This document shows, piece after piece, positions 1-17,928 of a DNA stretch of 64,000 nt (position 1 is the stretch's first letter; each line of letters begins with the position of its first letter). The notes beneath the pieces are model-generated. The model made no database searches, had not been told where the DNA came from, and worked only from the letters and a program-made list of their open reading frames with translations. Origin of the DNA: an archaeon (GTDB taxonomy: Archaea > Nanobdellota > Nanobdellia > SCGC-AAA011-G17 > GW2011-AR17). Position numbers and translations under genes: made by a program. The DNA lies in assembly GCA_018653605.1 (NCBI GenBank), contig JABHYY010000021.1, forward strand, positions 4,329-68,328, read 5' to 3'.

Positions 1-729
1 GAAGCTTGGTCAAGAGTGATTAATAGTGCTTATATGGAAGCTAATGGAGAAAGTCTTGAAAATGAAGCATATCAAAATTTGATTTTAACAATCATGTATC
101 AAGAAGCTGGTTTGAGAAGTGAAAGAAGAGCAACACCTTTCTTGTTTGTTACTGAAGATATGATTCCAGGTATGGATAACTCATCTTTTGGTCCAATGCA
201 AGTTAAGTTGTTGAGTGATTTTGAAGGTGATCCAGAAAGCATGGAAGATATTTTAGTTTATTCAATGCAAAGATTGGACAAAGTTGTTGAAGCTTATGGT
301 GGAGAAGTTACTAATGATAATTTGCAATTCCTTTTTGGAGATTGGGTTGCAGGTGATTATGCTTGTAGAGCTGCTGCTGTACAGAACATGTTGAATAAAG
401 AATTAAGTAGAGGACTTAGCTTAGATGGAGACTTAGGTCCAATGTCCAAAGGCGCTTTGAAACAATTAAATGACCAATATAATCTAGGCATGGATAGAGA
501 AGAAATTGATAGTTTTGAAATTGGAGATAATGGTGAATTTTTTGAGAGTGAAGTTTATAGAACTTTAGTTGAAAATTTTGCTTATGTTGAAAATCCTGTT
601 TTGGTTGAAGCCCATATGACAGGAATTGAAGGAGAATTAGCTCCAGTTAGAGGAGTTCCTGGAAATTCACAAGAATATGTTTCAAGAGCTCTTGAAGCTT
701 ATGATAATATAGGAGGATTGCAAAAATGA
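1..729 (+). CDS. DUF1615/YaiW-like lysozyme-fold protein (5' truncated by window edge)
   Basis: Frame is open from base 1. Motifs QEAG, GPMQV and FGDWVAGDYACRAAAVQN..LSLDGDL parallel the YaiW motifs QES, GGPMQV and FADFNAGWYASRNAAFQN..LALDGDL as I recall them. Confidence 0.75.
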   Translation, partial: EAWSRVINSAYMEANGESLENEAYQNLILTIMYQEAGLRSERRATPFLFVTEDMIPGMDNSSFGPMQVKLLSDFEGDPESMEDILVYSMQRLDKVVEAYGGEVTNDNLQFLFGDWVAGDYACRAAAVQNMLNKELSRGLSLDGDLGPMSKGALKQLNDQYNLGMDREEIDSFEIGDNGEFFESEVYRTLVENFAYVENPVLVEAHMTGIEGELAPVRGVPGNSQEYVSRALEAYDNIGGLQK

Positions 730-1088
730 AAAGGAAAATAATTGGAAGTGTAGCAGGCATAGGATTAGCAACAGCTTTAGGTTGTAGCGAAGAATCAGGA
801 ATTGGATACCATGGATTTCCTGAATTAGAAAGTGGAAATTGGGAAGTTACAGATATAAGAATCCCAACTAGAGGTAGTATCAATAATGTTTGGAGATTGG
901 AAGATAAAACATATTCTGTTACATTAAAACAAAATGGAGACCTGAATATTTCTGGACAGTATAAATATGAAATTAGAGAGAGTTATGACTTGATTCCTGA
1001 TGGCCGAGTGTTAGAAGGTGAAGAAAAACAAAGTTTTTGGGTTGATGAAAGACATGGAACTGTTACTCTAAGAGAGGTTGAAGAATGA
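726..1088 (+). CDS. putative lipoprotein
   Basis: MKRK plus hydrophobic stretch plus ALGC lipobox-like Cys; ATGA overlap with the upstream gene. Confidence 0.6.
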   Translation: MKRKIIGSVAGIGLATALGCSEESGIGYHGFPELESGNWEVTDIRIPTRGSINNVWRLEDKTYSVTLKQNGDLNISGQYKYEIRESYDLIPDGRVLEGEEKQSFWVDERHGTVTLREVEE

Positions 1089-1828
1089 AAGGGAGATATA
1101 TTTTAGGATTAGCAACTGTAGGTTTAGTTGGTTTAATTGGTGCTTTAAGTACACCTGTTTATAGAGACCATAACCCTAGTTATTATGCTATCACTGATAA
1201 TAGAGAAGAAGGAAGTAATTTACAAGCTGGTGAAAAAGATTATGATGTTTGGATACAGCAAGGTACTGTTGATGAAATTAGATCTCAATTTAAGTTTGAT
1301 TATAGATTAAAAAATGGTGAATCAGCGTTAAAACCTAATCGAAGAAGAGAATCAAATGTTACTGAAGAAGACATTATTAATTTTACTGTTGATTATATTG
1401 GAGACAAATTAAACTTTAGATGGCCAGTTTTATTTCCACAACCTATTGTTGATGGAATTAGAAAAGCCCCATTTGGTATGAGTGTAATGCCTAAGAAACA
1501 AAATGAATATTTTCAAAACACAACTCAAATTGATGTTGAAGGCGAGTGGGATATTCTAACTGATTGTTGGGATTATAGTCAGTTGTTCAAAAATGCGTTT
1601 AATGTTTTAGCACAGGATTATGGTGTTGAAGCTGAGGCTTTCAGAGTGACTGGTGACACTTATTTTAATTTGTTTGGTTTGGACAAAAAAGTAGGAGATC
1701 ATGATTTTAATTTAGTTATTGATTCTGAAGGGAATCATATCTATATTGATACAAATGGTCCAGATACACTTTGGATTACTAATCCACCAAATATTACTGA
1801 TAAAGTTGTTGTGAGGGAAGAAAAATGA
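1085..1828 (+). CDS. exported transglutaminase-like (Cys-His-Asp) protein
   Basis: N-terminal signal/anchor; DCWDYS...GDHDFN...YIDT matches the spacing of the transglutaminase-like triad. Confidence 0.6.
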   Translation: MKGRYILGLATVGLVGLIGALSTPVYRDHNPSYYAITDNREEGSNLQAGEKDYDVWIQQGTVDEIRSQFKFDYRLKNGESALKPNRRRESNVTEEDIINFTVDYIGDKLNFRWPVLFPQPIVDGIRKAPFGMSVMPKKQNEYFQNTTQIDVEGEWDILTDCWDYSQLFKNAFNVLAQDYGVEAEAFRVTGDTYFNLFGLDKKVGDHDFNLVIDSEGNHIYIDTNGPDTLWITNPPNITDKVVVREEK

Positions 1829-2181
1829 AAGCAATTGCAACAGGATTAGTTGGTGCTGTTTTAAGTTTGAGTAATGTTTGTGAACAACCAGAAACAATTG
1901 AAGAAACTGTAGAAGAATGTCCAAGAATTGAAGGACCAAGAGTTTTACAAGTTGGTCAAATTGGGGACTATTCTTTTGTTAATGAGAATTGTGAAACCCC
2001 TTTTGCTGAAGAAGGAGAGATCCCAGCAGGAGTTTGGTTACTTTATACACCAAATTTTTTATCACCTGAAGACAAAGACAATAACCAATATACAATAAGT
2101 TTAGGTTTTAATGAACCTGGAAGTTATGAATTAACATTCAAAGGTGATTTTACTACAATAACAATTGAGGTTGAAGAATGA
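1825..2181 (+). CDS. exported hypothetical protein (beta-rich)
   Basis: Hydrophobic N-terminus; acidic beta-rich body; ATGA overlaps on both sides. Confidence 0.6.
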   Translation: MKAIATGLVGAVLSLSNVCEQPETIEETVEECPRIEGPRVLQVGQIGDYSFVNENCETPFAEEGEIPAGVWLLYTPNFLSPEDKDNNQYTISLGFNEPGSYELTFKGDFTTITIEVEE

Positions 2182-2504
2182 GCAAAGATATAATTTATAT
2201 GACTTGTTTGTTGGCAACCACTGTAGCAACTTTAGGTCTTTTTGCTTGGAATTCAAGAGGTTATGTTGGTGAAGTTGCAGAAGATTTAGTTCCATTTGAA
2301 GAAGAGTTTAGCCAAGAGTGTGAACAAAAAACTGTGAATACTCTTTATGATGGTTCTTTAGATGCAATTGTTGATAGAAGAGATGAGTTTTTAGAGAGTC
2401 GAAATGTTCGAACTAATTGTGAAAAATGGGTTTGTTCAAAAAATTATCCTGATGGCTATAAAATGCTTATTACAAATAGTAGGAGTTGTCGAGGAGAAAA
2501 ATAA
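2178..2504 (+). CDS. membrane-anchored hypothetical protein
   Basis: One N-terminal hydrophobic helix, several Cys, ATGA-coupled start. Confidence 0.6.
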   Translation: MSKDIIYMTCLLATTVATLGLFAWNSRGYVGEVAEDLVPFEEEFSQECEQKTVNTLYDGSLDAIVDRRDEFLESRNVRTNCEKWVCSKNYPDGYKMLITNSRSCRGEK

Positions 2505-2506
2505 AA

Positions 2507-3139
2507 ATGAATCAATATTTCGAAAGAGCAGATGATTTTTTGACTAAACATTTACTTCCTGGTATCAAAAGAAGAAGAGAATACTTAGAAAGAGTGTTGG
2601 ACAGACATAGAGAATATTTGTCTTATGCTATATTTGCTGAAGATGCTGATGGAGTAAAGAAAATTAATGAAAAATATGTTGATTTTAATTTTCCATTAAG
2701 ATGTTATGTTGAAGCTAAGCAAGGAGAGATTGAATATTCTTTTCCTGTTAATCAAGAAAATATTACAACCCCAGAACAACAAAGGTTTGTTGATGAAGCT
2801 CAAGCAAGTGCCAATAGCAAATATTGTACAAATTGGACTAAAAATGCTAAAAGATGTGAAGAAACAGATGATTTGGTTTTAAGATTTTTAGCTGGTCATT
2901 TACTATCAGAAGTTGCTGCTAGATCTCTTTCTGGAGAAAACCTTATTGGGGATTTTAAAGTTCCTAGTTTAGAAGATCTGCAAAGTACTGAATCTTTAGA
3001 TGAATTGTTTGACCCAGCTAATAGCTTTCTAAGAATTTCTCAGAAATTAAGAGCTCGTTACATTGACTTAGCTAGTAGAGATAATCTGTTTGGTGCTTGG
3101 AAATTAAATGAAGCTATTCATGAGAAATATTCTCAATAA
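2507..3139 (+). CDS. hypothetical protein
   Basis: Long ORF; ATG at 2507, 2 nt after the upstream stop, preferred over the ORF-track start at 2486. Confidence 0.6.
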   Translation: MNQYFERADDFLTKHLLPGIKRRREYLERVLDRHREYLSYAIFAEDADGVKKINEKYVDFNFPLRCYVEAKQGEIEYSFPVNQENITTPEQQRFVDEAQASANSKYCTNWTKNAKRCEETDDLVLRFLAGHLLSEVAARSLSGENLIGDFKVPSLEDLQSTESLDELFDPANSFLRISQKLRARYIDLASRDNLFGAWKLNEAIHEKYSQ

Positions 3140-4277
3140 GATAGACCTTATCATTCTCTCTTACTTTTTTTTCTGTTTTTATTCCTACTAAGCATTTAGA
3201 AGCTTTATCCACCTGTTTGTGATTAATTTGTAATTCTTTAACTTCTTGTTTTATTACACCTGTTTTGTTTCCAACAAACATTATTTGATCTTTTAATTTG
3301 AGATCTTTGTATAATTGAATTGCTGCAACACCGTGTTCTTTGTAGAAGTTTATTACTTTACCAATTTGGATTTTTTTTGTTTTTGAAATATTGCCTTCAG
3401 ATTCAGTAAACTCATTGAATGGTTTTCCTAGGTAAAAGCCTGAATGGAAGCCTCTGTTGTATGCTGTTTTTAGTTCTTCTAATAGTGCATTCTTATTCTC
3501 TTCTGTAAATTCATTATTTTTTATTAGTGTAAGTGCTTTTTTGTATGTTCTGACTACAGTGTCAACATACTCAGGAGTTTTTGCTCTACCTTCGATCTTT
3601 ATACAGTCTACAAACTGTAGTTGGTCTAGGAAAGGTAGTGTGCACAGATCTTTTGGTGACATTATGTAACCTTGTCCTAACTTTAATTCTTTGTTTTCTT
3701 CTGTGTCTGTAATTTTGTATTCTCTTCTACAAGGTTGTATGCATTTTCCTCTGTTTGCACTTCTTTGAAATAAGTGTTGTGATAGGAAACATCTGCCTGA
3801 ATATGAAACACACATTGCACCATGGCAAAAAACTTCTATCTCTATGTTAGAATCTTTTATTTTTTTTATCTGGTTTATGTTGAGTTCTCTTGCAAGGATT
3901 ACTCTTTCAACACCTAGTTCTTTGTATTGTTCTATTGCCTTTAAATTAGCAACTGAAGCTTGTGTTGATAAGTGAACTGGGATTTCTAATTCTTTTGCAA
4001 TTTTTATAACTGCTAAGTCCCAACATATTACTGCGTCAATGTGGTCTTTTAGTTCTGTTAAAACTTCTTTTACCCTGTCCAACTCTTCATCATAAATTAT
4101 TGTGTTGATTGTTAGGTATTTTTTTATTTCTGGAAATGCTTTTACTTCTTCTATTGTAAAGTTTTTTGCAGAATCTCGCATGTTAAATTCTTTGATTCCA
4201 AAATATATTGAATCTGCTCCTGCATTGATTGCAGCTTGAAGCATTGCTTGATCTCCTACTGGTGCTAGTATTTCCAT
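3114..4277 (-). CDS. U32 family protein (TrhP/RlhA-like RNA hydroxylase family)
   Basis: MEILAPVG start; AGADSIYFG, HLSTQASV and FCHGAMCVSYSGRC..SANRGKCIQPCRR Fe-S cysteines; KIEGR. Confidence 0.9.
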   Translation of the reverse strand: MEILAPVGDQAMLQAAINAGADSIYFGIKEFNMRDSAKNFTIEEVKAFPEIKKYLTINTIIYDEELDRVKEVLTELKDHIDAVICWDLAVIKIAKELEIPVHLSTQASVANLKAIEQYKELGVERVILARELNINQIKKIKDSNIEIEVFCHGAMCVSYSGRCFLSQHLFQRSANRGKCIQPCRREYKITDTEENKELKLGQGYIMSPKDLCTLPFLDQLQFVDCIKIEGRAKTPEYVDTVVRTYKKALTLIKNNEFTEENKNALLEELKTAYNRGFHSGFYLGKPFNEFTESEGNISKTKKIQIGKVINFYKEHGVAAIQLYKDLKLKDQIMFVGNKTGVIKQEVKELQINHKQVDKASKCLVGIKTEKKVRENDKVYLIENISHE

Positions 4278-4329
4278 AGTTAAAATTTTATAGATAAAAC
4301 TTATAAACCTGTTGTTTTGTGGTGAATTT

Positions 4330-5562
4330 ATGGATGGGAGATTAGAAGAGTTAGTTCGAAAACAGTATAGATACATAGTTCCAGATTTAGCTGAAGAAAC
4401 ATACGATAGGTTAATTGAGTTTATGAATTCTAATACTGAACTGAATAGTGTGAGTATTGTAACACTTAAAGCCCTAACAAAAGTAGGAAAACAGCTCTGT
4501 AGGTCTTATGGAGAAAAAGTTGAAGATGCTTTTTGGGAGAACTTATATGACTATAATGCTTATGGTGCAAGAGTTCTTACTGATAAAAGTATGCCCGAAC
4601 ACGAATCTAAAATAAAACAAGTTAAAGGCGTAAAACCCAATTATCTTGCTTCTCATTTTTGGATGAATGCTTCAGATTCTGCATTTGAACTCTATAGAAA
4701 AGCAAACAAAAGAAGAGATACAAAAAAGAAAGAAAAGCATAGGACTATATTTATGAGTGCTGGATTAAATGCATTGAGTCTATTGCTCAATGCAGATGAT
4801 GATAATTACTTTGACCCAATATTGAGAAACTGCAAGGAACTTCGGAGAAGGGCTTTATATTGTTTTAATTTTGGAGGAGACATAAGGGGTGCAGAGATGG
4901 ATTATCAACTTGTTCTTGCTGAAGCTGAAGTTTATGACCATATGGGAGAGTTTGAATCAACCAGAACAAATCCAAGTTCAGAAAAAATAAGAGAATTAGA
5001 GTTAACTAGACTTGAGGCACTTGAAGCTGCAGCAAAAAAAGCCTATGTTGTGTATTCTTCTACAAAAAGATCTGAAAAAGGGAAATGGTTTGATAGAGTT
5101 GTAGATTCTGTTACTGAAGCTTCTTTAGAATATCTTGAATTAGAAAAAGTAGATGAAGCTTTTGCTGTTGCTGGAAAATTAGGTATGGGGAATGAGTTTG
5201 CTGCAACCTCTGATCCATACCCTAATGAAAAAGCTGCAGACCTTTGGTTGAAAATGGCAGAGAAGCTTGAAGATATTGATCTGGAAAAAATGGTTGAAGC
5301 TACTGAAAAGGCTGCTATCACTACTACCATTATGTATTTCTCTCCAGTGATTGCAAAAAGAAAAAAAATAAATTATATTGAAAAAGCTATAGGGTTAAGA
5401 AAAATAGCTTTACAGCAAGCTTTAGATTTGGGATTAGATCCTAAACCAAGAATAAATTCACTTTTAGTTCATTACCAGCATGCTTGCGATGATAAACCAA
5501 GGAATGCTAGAAAGTACCAAGGAGAAATTGCAAAATATCAAGCAATGATGGCTGAACTTTAA
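4330..5562 (+). CDS. hypothetical all-helical protein
   Basis: ORF of about 410 aa; GGTGA Shine-Dalgarno before ATG 4330; Ala/Leu/Glu-rich helical pattern. Confidence 0.65.
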   Translation: MDGRLEELVRKQYRYIVPDLAEETYDRLIEFMNSNTELNSVSIVTLKALTKVGKQLCRSYGEKVEDAFWENLYDYNAYGARVLTDKSMPEHESKIKQVKGVKPNYLASHFWMNASDSAFELYRKANKRRDTKKKEKHRTIFMSAGLNALSLLLNADDDNYFDPILRNCKELRRRALYCFNFGGDIRGAEMDYQLVLAEAEVYDHMGEFESTRTNPSSEKIRELELTRLEALEAAAKKAYVVYSSTKRSEKGKWFDRVVDSVTEASLEYLELEKVDEAFAVAGKLGMGNEFAATSDPYPNEKAADLWLKMAEKLEDIDLEKMVEATEKAAITTTIMYFSPVIAKRKKINYIEKAIGLRKIALQQALDLGLDPKPRINSLLVHYQHACDDKPRNARKYQGEIAKYQAMMAEL

Positions 5563-5563
5563 A

Positions 5564-6712
5564 TTATTCTTCTTTTTTTACCTTGCCAAAAGCCAGTGCA
5601 GCATAAACTAATATAGAGTGACCACCAGTTTGTAAAGTGTTTCCTTCTTTATCAACACGAGGAGATGTTGGTGACCAACCATACCTTATTCCAAAAGGGA
5701 CTAACCCACCTATTTTTGAATTAAAAGAAAGGCCTACATTAGGTAACACATTTGTATCAAATGTTTGTGAACCTTCAACTTGATTATCGCCAAGAAGAGT
5801 TAAAACTCCAACTTCTGGCCTTAAGTGATAATGTTTTGCTATTAGAAAGCCTAATGAAAGGTTGGCTTGAGCCCATGTAGAGTGTCTAAATTCATCATAA
5901 TATGTCCCAGGTGCAGCTCCTTGACTATTCATAAAACCTCCTTGGTACAATGCATTAAAAATATCAACACTTTGTTGTGTTCCAAACCTGCCTTGAAGAT
6001 GTAAGTTTAAAACTTTTCCTTGAAAATAAACTCCTGCCATCATTAGCAATTTTAAAGAATGTTCCTTATCATCAAATCCATCAATGTTTGATTTAAATCC
6101 AGGTCTGTGTGCATATTCTCCAAATCCACTAATTTCAAAACCCTCTTTTCTTTGTAATAGAACATCTTGTTCAAGATCTGAAATATCTGCTTCTAAAGTT
6201 AATTGTTGTTCAAAATGATTACTAGGAAAATTTGTTTCTGGTTTTGAAGGAAAACCATACACTTTTGCATAAGGTGAGTACATTAAACTTAACTCCAAAT
6301 GTTCTGCTGGTGCTATTGAAGAGAATACTTCTACTCCTAATTCATTTGCTTGGACTTCTCTTTCTTCTGCACTAGATCCATCTTGATTAAAGTCTAAGTA
6401 ATTTCCTTGAATAATATATCTCACAAAAGGTCTAACTCCAAAATCAACTTCTCCTCTTCTTAAAAATTCAACTGATAAACCTGAAGTACTTATTGACCCT
6501 AAAAAATCCCAAGAAGGATCAGCAGGAAATCTACTATATACTTGAACCTGAGCAAGAGGTATTGTACTTCCTTGACCAACTAAAGATGTTTCCATACCAC
6601 CAAAAATGCTTACATGATATTCATTTCTGGGTTCTGGATTTTCTTCAGCCTTTGCAACAGACCCTAATAATAATGTTGCTAGGGCTGCTCCACCTAATAA
6701 ATTACGAATCAT
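5564..6712 (-). CDS. signal-peptide protein with predicted outer-membrane-type beta-barrel (Omp85/TamA-like, tentative)
   Basis: Signal peptide ending AKA; about 15-16 amphipathic beta-strand segments; last strand VYAALAF. CDS is secure, fold is inferred. Confidence 0.55.
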   Translation of the reverse strand: MIRNLLGGAALATLLLGSVAKAEENPEPRNEYHVSIFGGMETSLVGQGSTIPLAQVQVYSRFPADPSWDFLGSISTSGLSVEFLRRGEVDFGVRPFVRYIIQGNYLDFNQDGSSAEEREVQANELGVEVFSSIAPAEHLELSLMYSPYAKVYGFPSKPETNFPSNHFEQQLTLEADISDLEQDVLLQRKEGFEISGFGEYAHRPGFKSNIDGFDDKEHSLKLLMMAGVYFQGKVLNLHLQGRFGTQQSVDIFNALYQGGFMNSQGAAPGTYYDEFRHSTWAQANLSLGFLIAKHYHLRPEVGVLTLLGDNQVEGSQTFDTNVLPNVGLSFNSKIGGLVPFGIRYGWSPTSPRVDKEGNTLQTGGHSILVYAALAFGKVKKEE

Positions 6713-6748
6713 ATAAAAAAAGAATAAAAGTTAAGTTTAAAACAATTT

Positions 6749-7843
6749 CTATGATAAAATCTGTTTGAAAACCATACCTTTCATGTTTTTTACCATGTAC
6801 TCTTGTGCTTTTTTTGTGGTCTCACCATTTGTTAAGAAAATCAGAGGTAATTTTTCATTTTGTGCTTCTGTGAATGCTAGCAAAAGTTCACCTTCGTTTA
6901 ATTTTTTCTTGTTTTTTGCTTTAACCATGTAAGCTAAGTTTCCAATATCTGTTGGAATTTTTACTAAGAAATTAATTTCTCTGTTCTTTCTTATTACTAC
7001 TATATTTTCTATGTTAACATTGTTTTTATTCAAATAAGCAATTACTGTTTTTGCAAAATCATCTTGTACTTGTTGAGGAGGTAGTGTTACTTGTTTTGGT
7101 TCTTCTTTAGGTTCTTCCTTAGGTTCTTCCTTAGGTTCTTCCTTAGGTTCTTCCTTAGGTTCTTCCTTAGGTTCTTCCTTAGGTTCTTCCTTAGGTTCTT
7201 CCTTAGGTTCTTCCTTAGGTTCTTCTTTAGGTTCTTCCTTAGGTTCTTCTTTAGGTTCTTCCTTTGGTTCTTCCTTAGGTTCTTCCTTAGGTTCTTCCTT
7301 AGCTGGCTGAGGCAGTTCTTGTTGTTTTGGTTCCTCAGCCTTTGGTTCCTCTGTAACAGGAGTCACTGGTTTATCTTCACCATACAATCTTTGTAAAATT
7401 TCTTCAATTAATTCTTTTGCTTCATCATCGTCAACTAAGTACCATTTCCAAAAAGTTTCAAGATTACCCTTTATTTGTAAAGGAAGAGGTTTTGCAAAGT
7501 CAGGTATTTCTTTTAGTGCTACTCTTATTGCTGGTTCTTGATCTCTTTCCCTTAAAACTTTATTCTCTTGTAACAAGTCAAATGCTCTCTTTGGAAATTC
7601 TTTCAAATGGTCCCTTAACATTGTTGCTAGCTTAGGTTCTTGGCCAGCTGCATAGTACAAAGGTGATCCACCAACTTTTGCCTTTGAAATTTTGAGTTGT
7701 TTTCCAGAAGTTAGTTCTGATAGTAGAGCTGAAATGAAAAGTGTGCTAGTTCCAACATTTTGTTTAACTTTAACTGGCAAAATGGGGCCTGCTCTCTTTA
7801 CATAACTCAATACTTGCTCTTTTAATTGGAGAACTTTGTTCAT
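6749..7843 (-). CDS. hypothetical protein: N-terminal wHTH-like region, EEPK linker, C-terminal PD-(D/E)xK-like domain
   Basis: 364-aa ORF; the C-terminal EINFLV..YMVKAK segment resembles a degenerate restriction-endonuclease-like fold. Confidence 0.6.
   Translation of the reverse strand: MNKVLQLKEQVLSYVKRAGPILPVKVKQNVGTSTLFISALLSELTSGKQLKISKAKVGGSPLYYAAGQEPKLATMLRDHLKEFPKRAFDLLQENKVLRERDQEPAIRVALKEIPDFAKPLPLQIKGNLETFWKWYLVDDDEAKELIEEILQRLYGEDKPVTPVTEEPKAEEPKQQELPQPAKEEPKEEPKEEPKEEPKEEPKEEPKEEPKEEPKEEPKEEPKEEPKEEPKEEPKEEPKEEPKEEPKEEPKQVTLPPQQVQDDFAKTVIAYLNKNNVNIENIVVIRKNREINFLVKIPTDIGNLAYMVKAKNKKKLNEGELLLAFTEAQNEKLPLIFLTNGETTKKAQEYMVKNMKGMVFKQILS
7094..7297 (-). repeat. 12-bp coding tandem repeat x17 (EEPK)
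   Basis: Unit cttaggttcttc on + strand, 17 consecutive units with only synonymous variants. Confidence 0.97.
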
Positions 7844-7897: not shown

Positions 7898-8458
7898 TTA
7901 AGGTTTAGTCCAAGAGACGCTGTAGTAAGTCACATCTCCTTCGTCGTCAACAACACCAATAAGTAATTTTTTTCTTGTAGAATGAGCTACTCTGTTTTTT
8001 GCTGAGAAATTGTACCAAGTTTCCATTTCTGTTTCTAATACAGGATATAAAATCCATTTTGCATGATCTTCTCCAGGCTTGACTCCTCTGTCATACACTC
8101 TAAAATCTGCTCCAAACTTAAGTGCTGTTTTTACAATATAACCCCTGTTTCTCATGTCTTTGTAAACATTATATCTTGTCCAGAAGTTAGGTTCTAATTT
8201 TCTTGCTTTTTTTAGATATTTGTCAAGATTAAGGATTGTTCTGCCTGAAATAACTTGCATTTTTCCTCTTTCAATCAGGTAAAGTGCTTCAACTAAAGAG
8301 TATTGGAACTTGTCCTTGTGGAATGGTTCGCCCAATCTTGACTTTTCATAAAGTTCTCTAGCTAGATCGCAAGATCCTGCAATAACTTTCTCATTTGAAA
8401 AGATACCTTGAATTGGTTCTCTCACTTCTTCATGGACTTGTTTTTTCTTCTTTACCAT
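7898..8458 (-). CDS. endA: tRNA-intron endonuclease, catalytic subunit
   Basis: YSLVEALYL, YKDMRNRGYIVKTALKFGADFRVY and HAKW..RVAHSTRK carry the Tyr/His/Lys catalytic motifs. Confidence 0.93.
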   Translation of the reverse strand: MVKKKKQVHEEVREPIQGIFSNEKVIAGSCDLARELYEKSRLGEPFHKDKFQYSLVEALYLIERGKMQVISGRTILNLDKYLKKARKLEPNFWTRYNVYKDMRNRGYIVKTALKFGADFRVYDRGVKPGEDHAKWILYPVLETEMETWYNFSAKNRVAHSTRKKLLIGVVDDEGDVTYYSVSWTKP

Positions 8459-17027: not shown

Positions 17028-17928
17028 CTCGCATAAAATCCTTTAGTATATCTAAAATTGATGCAACTGTTGACATTACTGCAAACTCTTTATGTGTGTA
17101 ATCAGAGGATTCTATTTTTCTTTCTAATTTGTATCTCTCTTTGATAATGTCTTCTTCTATTTTTCCTTTTTCTAAAGAAACAATTAATTTTTTTAAAAAA
17201 TCAAAAAATGGAACAATATCTTTTTTTGCTTTCCTGGTGATCCCTTTTTTTTCAATAACATCTGCTACATGAACAATCTTATCAACCATTCTATCTATTG
17301 CCATGTAAAAAGAAAATAATTGTAATTTCTTTTCATCACTTATTTCACTATTATTCAAAACTCTAAGATAATATGCAATAAATTTTGCAATATTATCATG
17401 CTGATCTATCATTGGACTTAAAATTTTCTTTTCTTTTTCATCTAAACAAGAAATAATTTCATCCATCATGTCATTCATTAAAACAAAAATTCTTCTTTCT
17501 ATTTTTTTTAGATTTTGATCTTTTTCATTTAGGAAACATTTGATCTCACAAGAATTTGATGTTTGTGAAATTATTTCCATTCCAATAAACCTGTGTGTTA
17601 ATTCTTTAATTCTTTTTCTTCTACTCTCCATTTTTTTATATCTATGATTATATTCTATGTCTGTATTATAATGTAATTTGATTTTTGTATAATTATTAAT
17701 ATAGAGTAATTCTATGTATCTAACAATCATCTTTCTGTCAAAAGAACTAATATCAAGAGAAATTTCTTTCTTTTTTTGACTGGTTTTATCTAATGAAAAG
17801 GTAATATCTTTGCTACTTGTTACTAAATTCAATTCATCTCCTTTCTTAATATTATTTGTTCTTACCCATCTTGCTGGTAAAGATACCATTAATGTTGTTG
17901 GACCTATTTTTGATACTTTTCTTTTCAT
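16996..17928 (-). CDS. AbrB/SpoVT-PhoU family regulator
   Basis: N-terminal RKVSKIGPTTLMVSLPARWV AbrB fold followed by PhoU-like helical repeats. Confidence 0.85.
   Translation of the reverse strand: MKRKVSKIGPTTLMVSLPARWVRTNNIKKGDELNLVTSSKDITFSLDKTSQKKKEISLDISSFDRKMIVRYIELLYINNYTKIKLHYNTDIEYNHRYKKMESRRKRIKELTHRFIGMEIISQTSNSCEIKCFLNEKDQNLKKIERRIFVLMNDMMDEIISCLDEKEKKILSPMIDQHDNIAKFIAYYLRVLNNSEISDEKKLQLFSFYMAIDRMVDKIVHVADVIEKKGITRKAKKDIVPFFDFLKKLIVSLEKGKIEEDIIKERYKLERKIESSDYTHKEFAVMSTVASILDILKDFMRVILIENFEQS

Follow-up and report, generated by a model that had tools for sequence, protein, structure and literature searches.

Why would an archaeon whose genome gives no sign of building a peptidoglycan (PG) wall carry a gene of a lysozyme-like, bacterial type? 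The question is raised by a 64,000-nucleotide (nt) stretch of DNA, here called the window, which corresponds to positions 4329–68328 of contig C31 in the archaeal genome G000. The first 729 nt of the window encode the greater part of P0001, a protein of 314 amino acids (aa) belonging to the DUF1615/YaiW family. The favoured answer, to which a probability of roughly 0.55 is attached, is that P0001 is a surface-anchored protein that cuts the glycan strands of murein, or at least binds them, and that it is used at contact with bacteria.

Read in frame +1, the window shows no interruption from its first base up to a stop codon at 727–729. Recovery of the 5' end, proposed in a preliminary description of this DNA, was achieved by reading the contig upstream of the window: the complete gene occupies C31:4113–5057, the apparent 5' truncation reflects the window edge alone, and the gene, which starts about 4 kb from the contig end, is intact. 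The protein begins MNRRQFLGIAGGAALALVAANE (in a longer reading, MNRRQFLGIAGGAALALVAANEIAKSY). The motifs to which the preliminary description had drawn attention (QEAG, GPMQV, GDWVAGDYACRAAAVQN and LDGDLG) are all found in frame +1 and in that order, with Glu107 lying inside QEAG. Table 1 lists the coordinates of the gene, its parts and its neighbours.

Family membership and relationship to lytic transglycosylases

Assignment to DUF1615/YaiW, made in the preliminary description, is borne out by profile comparison. The Pfam model (PF07759) matches P0001 with 33.3–33.7 bits against a gathering cut-off of 25 (E-value 3.8e-8 for the full protein), in an alignment limited to residues 178–263, equivalent to profile positions 177–271 of 319. 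The family of P0001 is rare and divergent, and a search of 1.84 billion cluster representatives returned 28 relatives at E ≤ 1e-3. An alignment of 25 sequences, A1, served as the basis for a family profile, for conservation counts and as input to AlphaFold2 (AF2). Twenty of its members match DUF1615 (best E 1.6e-29), and hhalign aligns the A1 profile with YaiW of Escherichia coli MG1655 at 99.2% (E 1e-19) over 192 columns, spanning YaiW residues 50–317. In this register QQES of YaiW falls on YQEA of P0001, and GGPMQV on FGPMQV. No match to P0001 was returned by NCBIfam, PHROGs or PADLOC; a phmmer search of the PDB gave a lone match to Cas13a (E 0.07), which was discarded as spurious.

YaiW (b0378) is the type member of DUF1615. 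The two proteins have about 190 homologous columns in common, at an identity of ca. 25–35% that BLAST detects only as local similarity. The common elements are a Q-E-S/A helix, GPMQV, [A/G]D[F/W]NAG-Y and a segment of the form AxQ..LN...L.LDGDL, followed by a helical region, and P0001, like YaiW, is predicted to be extracytoplasmic. Several differences are also evident. YaiW is annotated as a surface-exposed outer-membrane lipoprotein of a Gram-negative bacterium, is encoded beside sbmA, and has a literature concerned with peptide uptake and resistance screens, whereas P0001 is found in an archaeon and in an unrelated operon. An insert of some 65 residues separates the Glu helix from GPMQ in YaiW and is missing from P0001, and the residue after the Glu is Ser in YaiW and Ala in P0001. 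The lipobox Cys of YaiW also has no counterpart in P0001, the N-terminus of which has no Cys and shows an Arg-Arg pair and a hydrophobic segment instead; lipobox lipoprotein status is probably a trait of the enterobacterial members rather than of the whole family.

The more distant relationship to lytic transglycosylases (LTs) was assessed with an SLT profile made from the catalytic domains of five E. coli family-1 enzymes (Slt70, MltC, MltD, MltE and MltF). Against this profile, the A1 profile scores 92.1% in hhalign (E 6.3e-7, 109 columns). The alignment places Glu107 on the catalytic Glu, GPMQ (136–139) on GLMQ, and GDWVAG on AAYNAG, in agreement with the earlier proposal of a lysozyme-like protein with a catalytic Glu. 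The match to the single MltE sequence is weak (6%) and in the same register. The Pfam SLT model is weakly matched by 3 of the 25 relatives (best E 1.3e-4) and by one giant archaeal relative (16.9 bits). A hidden Markov model of the five sequences found nothing in the whole G000 genome, and profile searches revealed no second DUF1615 or SLT-like gene there.

The AF2 model built with A1 has a predicted local distance difference test score (pLDDT) of 85 and a predicted template modelling score (pTM) of 0.84, and Glu107 ends a predicted helix (94–108). Comparison of such a model with SLT and lysozyme folds, suggested in the preliminary description, gave a divided answer. The top Foldseek matches in the PDB are MltF (probability 0.91), MltE and goose-type lysozymes, with E ≥ 0.19; those in a viral library are phage transglycosylase, SLT and tail-lysozyme proteins. 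Template modelling (TM) scores are 0.3–0.46 and the best E overall is 0.14–0.19, so that the modelled fold appears consistent with the relationship but is not significant on its own.

Residues ~191–231 (AAAVQNMLNKEL..LSLDGDLGPMSKGALKQL) match, as part of the family profile, the PG-binding repeats of the endolysin 7rum (E 1.1e-3) and of 1lbu and 4xxt. The equivalent segment of a giant-protein relative matches PG_binding_1, and no stretch of DUF1615 is better conserved than this one. These profile comparisons appear to place DUF1615 in the SLT/lysozyme-like superfamily, as a divergent branch to which a PG_binding-like segment is attached. The three motif positions agree in register with family-1 LTs (GH23) and goose-type lysozymes, as does the predicted location of the Glu at a helix end. 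The LTs, however, have ES and AYN where P0001 has EA and DWV, and P0001 extends beyond them with the PG_binding-like segment and a helical C-terminal half.

Near-invariant positions in A1 are Glu107 (24 of 25 sequences), Gly109, Arg111, Gly136 (25 of 25), Met138 (23), Tyr171, Asp186 (24), Gly190 (24), Ala197, Gln200 (24) and Asp214-Gly215 (22–24), a pattern indicating that occurrence of the motifs exceeds chance. The motif-III Asn position is more variable, with Asn in 14, Val in 4 and Cys in 4 of the 25; P0001 has Val. The ratio of nonsynonymous to synonymous substitution rates (dN/dS) is 0.26 relative to P0002, a homologue with 82% identity, and ~0.30 relative to P0003, with 56%. This means that the P0001 gene is under purifying selection.

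An archaeal host, and relatives in other lineages

Genome G000 (0.96 Mb in 42 contigs, 32% GC) has an estimated completeness of 93% and contamination of 0.32%. The small-subunit rRNA on contig C22 scores best with the archaeal Rfam model (869.8 bits), and a tRNA-intron endonuclease of archaeal type is encoded on the same contig as P0001, about 7 kb downstream of it (window 7898–8458), so that the archaeal identity of the host, as first described, stands. Near-identical DNA occurs in marine or seawater metagenomes from at least 17 studies. The claim that the host is without peptidoglycan was likewise supported: Mur_ligase_M has no match in G000, in a search that did find it in 13 of 14 control genomes, including three of archaea. 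Because there is no Mur ligase in the genome, a wall of murein or of a pseudomurein-like polymer is unlikely.

The possibility of a chimeric contig, raised in the preliminary description, was examined directly. A 10,793-nt contig from an independent run spans window positions 1–7127 with zero differences and equal depth on both sides. The window carries, at 7098–7302, 17 tandem copies of a 12-nt unit encoding (EEPK)n, and the break of short-k contigs at 7.1–7.3 kb is attributable to this coding repeat, not to a junction between organisms. The repeat lies within an open reading frame (ORF) on the minus strand (6749–7843) for a 364-aa protein with no family match; its k-mer depth in metagenomes is very high, and the short-k (Logan) contigs break there.

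Homologues of P0001 also have archaeal neighbours. The gene for P0003 is found mid-way along a 172-kb contig (locus L008), and the isoleucyl-tRNA synthetase (IleRS) adjoining its operon is 67–73% identical to its counterparts in genomes that belong to the same archaeal class but to a different family. The contig of P0006 carries a pyruvate phosphate dikinase (PPDK) with 60–72% identity to many genomes of this class. For loci L008 and L027, the domain of life was inferred from the identity of IleRS and PPDK to the class. An LGT gene beside P0006 was considered as a bacterial marker and rejected, Lgt having turned up in G000 as well as across the phylum (183 of 201 genomes). The IleRS of L008 (L008:1–2470) has close matches (E ≤ 1e-84; 30–73% identity) in about half of the sampled phylum genomes, and only weak, paralogue-level matches (E 1e-10 or weaker) in the remainder, G000 included, which suggests that two different IleRS types exist in this phylum.

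Distribution of the gene is patchy. It is absent from all 40 of the nearest relatives (1 of 41 when G000 is counted). Matches were found in 11 of 401 phylum genomes, mostly as a domain of DUF1615 type located towards the C-terminal end of giant ORFs (1181–3034 aa). In a maximum-likelihood tree P0001–P0003 form one clade (support 100/99), with P0006 as sister, followed by P0005 and P0007; the giant-protein domains fall apart from this operon-type clade, together with YaiW and on long branches. More distant relatives occur in bacterial contexts: P0013 with bL21 and a sortase, and P0008 and P0012 with SpoIIE/dCache. From the separation in the tree and from the occurrence of relatives in both archaeal-class and bacterial contexts, the small stand-alone form appears to be a second, patchy lineage of DUF1615 that these archaea have in common with uncultured bacteria. 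Since the substrate would be bacterial, a bacterial origin of the superfamily is a reasonable default.

In the region L034:8001–11350, the gene for P0007 lies downstream of a BatA/VWA/MoxR/DUF58 cluster and is followed by a gene for a 393-aa protein and then by a Peptidase_M23 gene, a second hydrolase of peptidoglycan type adjoining a DUF1615 relative.

The operon and its lipobox proteins

The P0001 gene is the fourth of nine in a co-directional run on C31 (Table 1). At five successive junctions the genes overlap by 4 nt (ATGA), and a GGAG/GAGG-like site precedes each overlap, features from which co-translation can be deduced. The methyltransferase-like gene overlaps the start of P0001 in this way; its product is 65% identical in L008, with no signal peptide and no match in Pfam. 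The core of the arrangement, consisting of the regulator, the methyltransferase-like gene, DUF1615 and the genes for the 120-, 247-, 118-, 108- and 217-aa proteins, is conserved at 35–71% identity in a second archaeal lineage (L008–L011), and the flanks of the run are also kept on a third contig, that of P0002. The 120-aa gene is found 3' of DUF1615 in L008 (37% identity) and again in L040. Paralogues of the AbrB/MazE regulator occur in G000 at window ~17104–17928 and on C14 and C28, and two copies flank the L008 operon.

Table 1. Positions of the P0001 gene, its parts and the genes around it. Coordinates are those of the window unless a contig (C31) or locus (L003) is named.
Feature	Position	Strand	Evidence or remark
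AbrB/MazE-type N-terminal-domain regulator, 296 aa	L003:749-1639	-	divergent; upstream of run
113-aa lipobox protein (LLAGC)	C31		first in run
401-aa helical-repeat protein	C31		second in run
264/283-aa class-I methyltransferase-like protein	L003:3322-4116		directly 5' of P0001; VLEVGAGYAG motif, seen by eye
P0001, first 72 codons (216 nt upstream of window)	C31:4113-4328		RR-containing hydrophobic N-terminal segment, predicted signal or anchor
P0001, codons 73-314 and stop	1..729	+	Pfam, hhalign, AF2 model, dN/dS
SLT/goose-lysozyme-like core (predicted)	64..354	+	hhalign, column conservation, Foldseek (E ≥ 0.19)
Core: helix ending in Glu107	103-105 (GAA codon)	+	
Core: GPMQ	190-201	+	
Core: invariant Tyr171 helix		+	
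Core: DWVAG	340-354	+	
Peptidoglycan-binding-domain-like helix-loop-helix (predicted), residues ~191-231, YACRAAAVQNMLNKEL..LSLDGDLGPMSKGALKQL	355..477	+	profile matches, Pfam DUF1615 alignment
120-aa exported protein, lipobox-like signal MKRKIIGSVAGIGLATALG followed by C (ALGC)	726..1088	+	start overlaps DUF1615 stop (ATGA)
247-aa membrane-anchored protein	1085..1828	+	71% identity to L008 copy
118-aa exported protein, MKAIATGLVGAVLSLSNVC...	1825..2181	+	ATGA overlap at both ends; 65% identity to L008 copy
108-aa protein, one N-terminal hydrophobic segment	2178..2504	+	ATGA overlap upstream; 49% identity to L008 copy
217-aa protein without signal sequence	2486..3139	+	last of conserved run; 35% identity to L008 212-aa gene

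Apart from the AbrB/MazE domain of the regulator, the operon partners have no match in Pfam, NCBIfam, PHROGs or PADLOC. Scans for sigma-70 promoters and terminators remained at background level, with models that are not applicable to archaea. The small neighbours were considered as pilin-like proteins, an idea that was rejected on the lipobox or signal-anchor look of their N-termini.

The 247-aa protein is the best conserved of the operon and has an invariant Cys161 (LTDCWDYSQL), His206 (HDFNL) and Asp222. Its AF2 model (pLDDT 61, core 78–89) places the Cys at a helix N-terminus, followed by His- and Asp-bearing strands, an order and structural setting like that in papain/transglutaminase-type thiol hydrolases. 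Foldseek gave weak matches of NTAQ1/Josephin type, none of them significant, and a tentative reading as a papain/transglutaminase-like thiol hydrolase is as far as the model can be taken for this reason. If that reading is true, enzymes that cut glycan and peptide or amide bonds would be paired in the operon, as is usual in murein-degrading sets. One homologue is labelled 'MAG: hypothetical protein [archaeon]' at NCBI, MAG denoting a metagenome-assembled genome.

Lipobox sequences in an archaeal operon raise the question of the modifying enzymes. A full-length Lgt of bacterial type is encoded in G000 (C42:37201–37902; L038:2181–2951), with a Pfam LGT score of 211 bits (E 1.8e-62), next to the gene for deoxyhypusine synthase. 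A signal peptidase II fragment (Peptidase_A8, Lsp) is found at a contig end (C20:4–162, locus L039). Of 201 high-quality genomes of the phylum, 183 contain PF01790 (145 of 158 genera), whereas four control archaea all lack it. With Lgt nearly universal in this phylum, real lipidation of the lipobox proteins of the operon is plausible. According to a 2025 paper in Nature Communications (PMC12462473), homologues of Lgt or Lsp had not been identified in archaea, and no literature linking Lgt with Woesearchaeota was found.

The conserved genes could conceivably form a seven-gene module, a previously undescribed lipid-anchored surface complex dependent on Lgt and Lsp with which some DPANN archaea breach bacterial walls. 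It may comprise the methyltransferase-like gene, the DUF1615 glycan cutter, the Cys/His/Asp thiol-hydrolase-like protein and three or four small lipobox or anchored proteins. This larger proposal is speculative and, on present evidence, unlikely.

Murein cutting and the alternatives

The favoured reading can be set out as follows. P0001 would be extracytoplasmic, either secreted or held by its N-terminal hydrophobic anchor, and its synthesis would be coupled translationally, within a single operon, to that of five small proteins of exported or lipobox type. Residues ~70–190 would form a divergent domain of the family-1 LT/goose-lysozyme type, in which GPMQ and DWxAG border the groove for the glycan and the part of general acid is taken by Glu107, at the C-terminal end of its helix. 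Residues ~191–231 would contribute a helix pair like that of peptidoglycan-binding domains, and the remainder a helical C-terminus specific to DUF1615. The protein would bind glycan strands and cleave bonds between N-acetylmuramic acid (MurNAc) and N-acetylglucosamine (GlcNAc) locally, at the contact site, in the murein of a bacterium that serves as partner or prey. As the host, a marine archaeon of DPANN type with a genome of about 1 Mb, shows no genes for murein or pseudomurein synthesis, bacterial murein is the most likely substrate. Family and archaeal host, as given in the preliminary description, have held up, and the fold class is probably right as well; the bacterial target and the activity are still matters of inference.

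A number of observations weigh against this reading. No bacterial partner of the host archaeon is known, and no glycosidase, LT or other enzymatic activity has been demonstrated for any DUF1615 protein, YaiW included. P0001 has no match to Pfam SLT (PF01464) at E ≤ 1, and the Foldseek fold matches, as noted, are statistically non-significant. Glu-Ala is found in the three archaeal proteins of operon type, as opposed to Glu-Ser/Thr in the 22 others, and at the motif-III position these three have Val, most relatives Asn. No P0001 transcripts were found among the metatranscriptomes searched. With regard to export, TatC, of the twin-arginine translocation (Tat) system, was not found in G000, at 93% completeness, despite the twin-arginine-like N-terminus, and P0002 has YPRV in place of RRQF.

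The N-terminus of P0001 (L003:4113–4180) has a Tat-like look, with Arg-Arg (RRQFLG) ahead of a hydrophobic segment, and a score of 15.6 bits with Pfam TAT_signal (cut-off 22.7). Given this sub-threshold score, the missing TatC and the failure of P0002 to keep the Arg pair, a Sec signal or signal-anchor seems more likely than a Tat signal. A twin-arginine-like motif, RRxF[LI], before a hydrophobic segment is common to most members of the family.

The substitutions beside the Glu and at motif III are also the starting point for the first alternative, in which P0001 is a non-catalytic surface module: an adhesin or scaffold derived from the LT fold that binds glycan or murein and either attaches to the partner cell or organises the co-encoded lipoproteins. 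Conservation is highest in the PG-binding-like segment, not in the catalytic lobe, and YaiW, a surface-exposed lipoprotein, has been linked to peptide uptake and is not known as an enzyme, both of which would suit such a role. Against it, Glu107, Gly136, Met138, Asp186 and Gly190 hardly vary within the family, as is expected of an active site, and no case is known in which a change from Ser to Ala beside the catalytic Glu has abolished LT activity. A purely binding role is therefore a real, if somewhat unlikely, alternative to murein cutting.

Activity on a glycan other than murein is distinctly less probable. Lysozyme-fold enzymes include chitinases and chitosanases, and the target could then be a GlcNAc-containing polymer of the cell's own envelope or of an archaeal host, or else chitin-like material, with remodelling of the envelope to insert the co-encoded surface proteins. 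The envelope-type surroundings, the lipobox neighbours, and the bacterial-type Lgt and Lsp in the genome would fit this explanation. However, the lack of a Mur ligase makes an own wall of murein or pseudomurein-like type unlikely, the absence of the gene from all 40 closest relatives is ill-suited to a housekeeping function in the wall, and the PG_binding-like segment points to murein.

That the gene was brought in by a mobile element or provirus as cargo, for example as an entry or lysis enzyme, and does not serve the archaeal cell, is very improbable. Its patchy occurrence and the presence of the same operon, with different flanks, in another order of the class are what a mobile gene would show, and the viral matches in Foldseek include tape-measure as well as tail-lysozyme proteins. 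But none of the nine operon proteins matches PHROGs or PADLOC, and no integrase, capsid or terminase gene lies within the 8 kb examined. GC content and read depth equal those of the surroundings, and no flanking tRNA or repeats were noted. With NCBIfam, PHROGs and PADLOC empty for P0001 and its operon partners, origin from a phage or a defence system is unsupported. Finally, bacterial DNA mis-assembled or mis-binned into the archaeal genome is hardly credible: such an origin might be suggested by the bacterial character of DUF1615 and SLT and by a contig end at a distance of 4 kb, but chimerism and contamination are rejected on the identical independent contig with its even depth, the break explained by a repeat, the low estimated contamination, the archaeal neighbours of P0001 and of its sister P0006, and the homologous operon in the middle of a 172-kb contig.

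The favoured role, murein cutting by an archaeon, has precedents. Large proteins with murein-like LT domains were described in Pacearchaeota and Woesearchaeota, with a proposed role in attachment to bacterial walls (Castelle et al. 2021, PMC8204110); previous sightings, by Rinke in 2013 and Castelle in 2015, are cited in that paper. The same finding was repeated, with predation as the proposed role, by Vigneron et al. (2022, PMC9723730) and by Zhang et al. (2024, mBio). These giant DPANN proteins (fam00969) resemble P0001 in occurring in the same archaeal class and in the role proposed for them, murein binding or degradation. They are, however, extracellular multidomain proteins of up to ~3000 aa, whereas P0001 is a single module of 314 aa in a conserved operon of its own. 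The giant ORFs of the class carry a domain of the DUF1615 family, found by the A1 profile and Pfam, and are presumably the same as fam00969.

A second parallel is offered by the haloarchaeon Halogranum salarium, the peptidoglycan hydrolases of which kill a bacterium (Strock et al. 2025, PMC12352652). Both cases concern homologues of PG-directed enzymes in an archaeon free of peptidoglycan, with bacteria as presumed targets. The haloarchaeal enzymes differ in coming from a free-living organism and in being experimentally bactericidal; no mention of SLT, GH23 or lytic transglycosylase was found in the main text of that paper. No literature on DUF1615 in archaea was found.

The concept of murein-directed archaeal enzymes is thus already published, and what is gained here is no new principle but a case open to testing and a connection from YaiW to the LTs. 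The new elements are modest: a small, stand-alone, probably anchored form of DUF1615 with its own conserved operon of lipobox proteins, and an explicit connection, indicated at the level of profiles, from YaiW/DUF1615 to the family-1 lytic transglycosylases. If P0001 is active, it would be a compact and easily expressed murein-directed enzyme from DPANN archaea, for which the published examples are giant and hard to study. At 314 aa it could serve to test biochemically, for the first time, whether members of the DUF1615/YaiW family are enzymes. The same test could show whether these archaea cut bacterial walls, which bears on the identity of their hosts or prey in the ocean.

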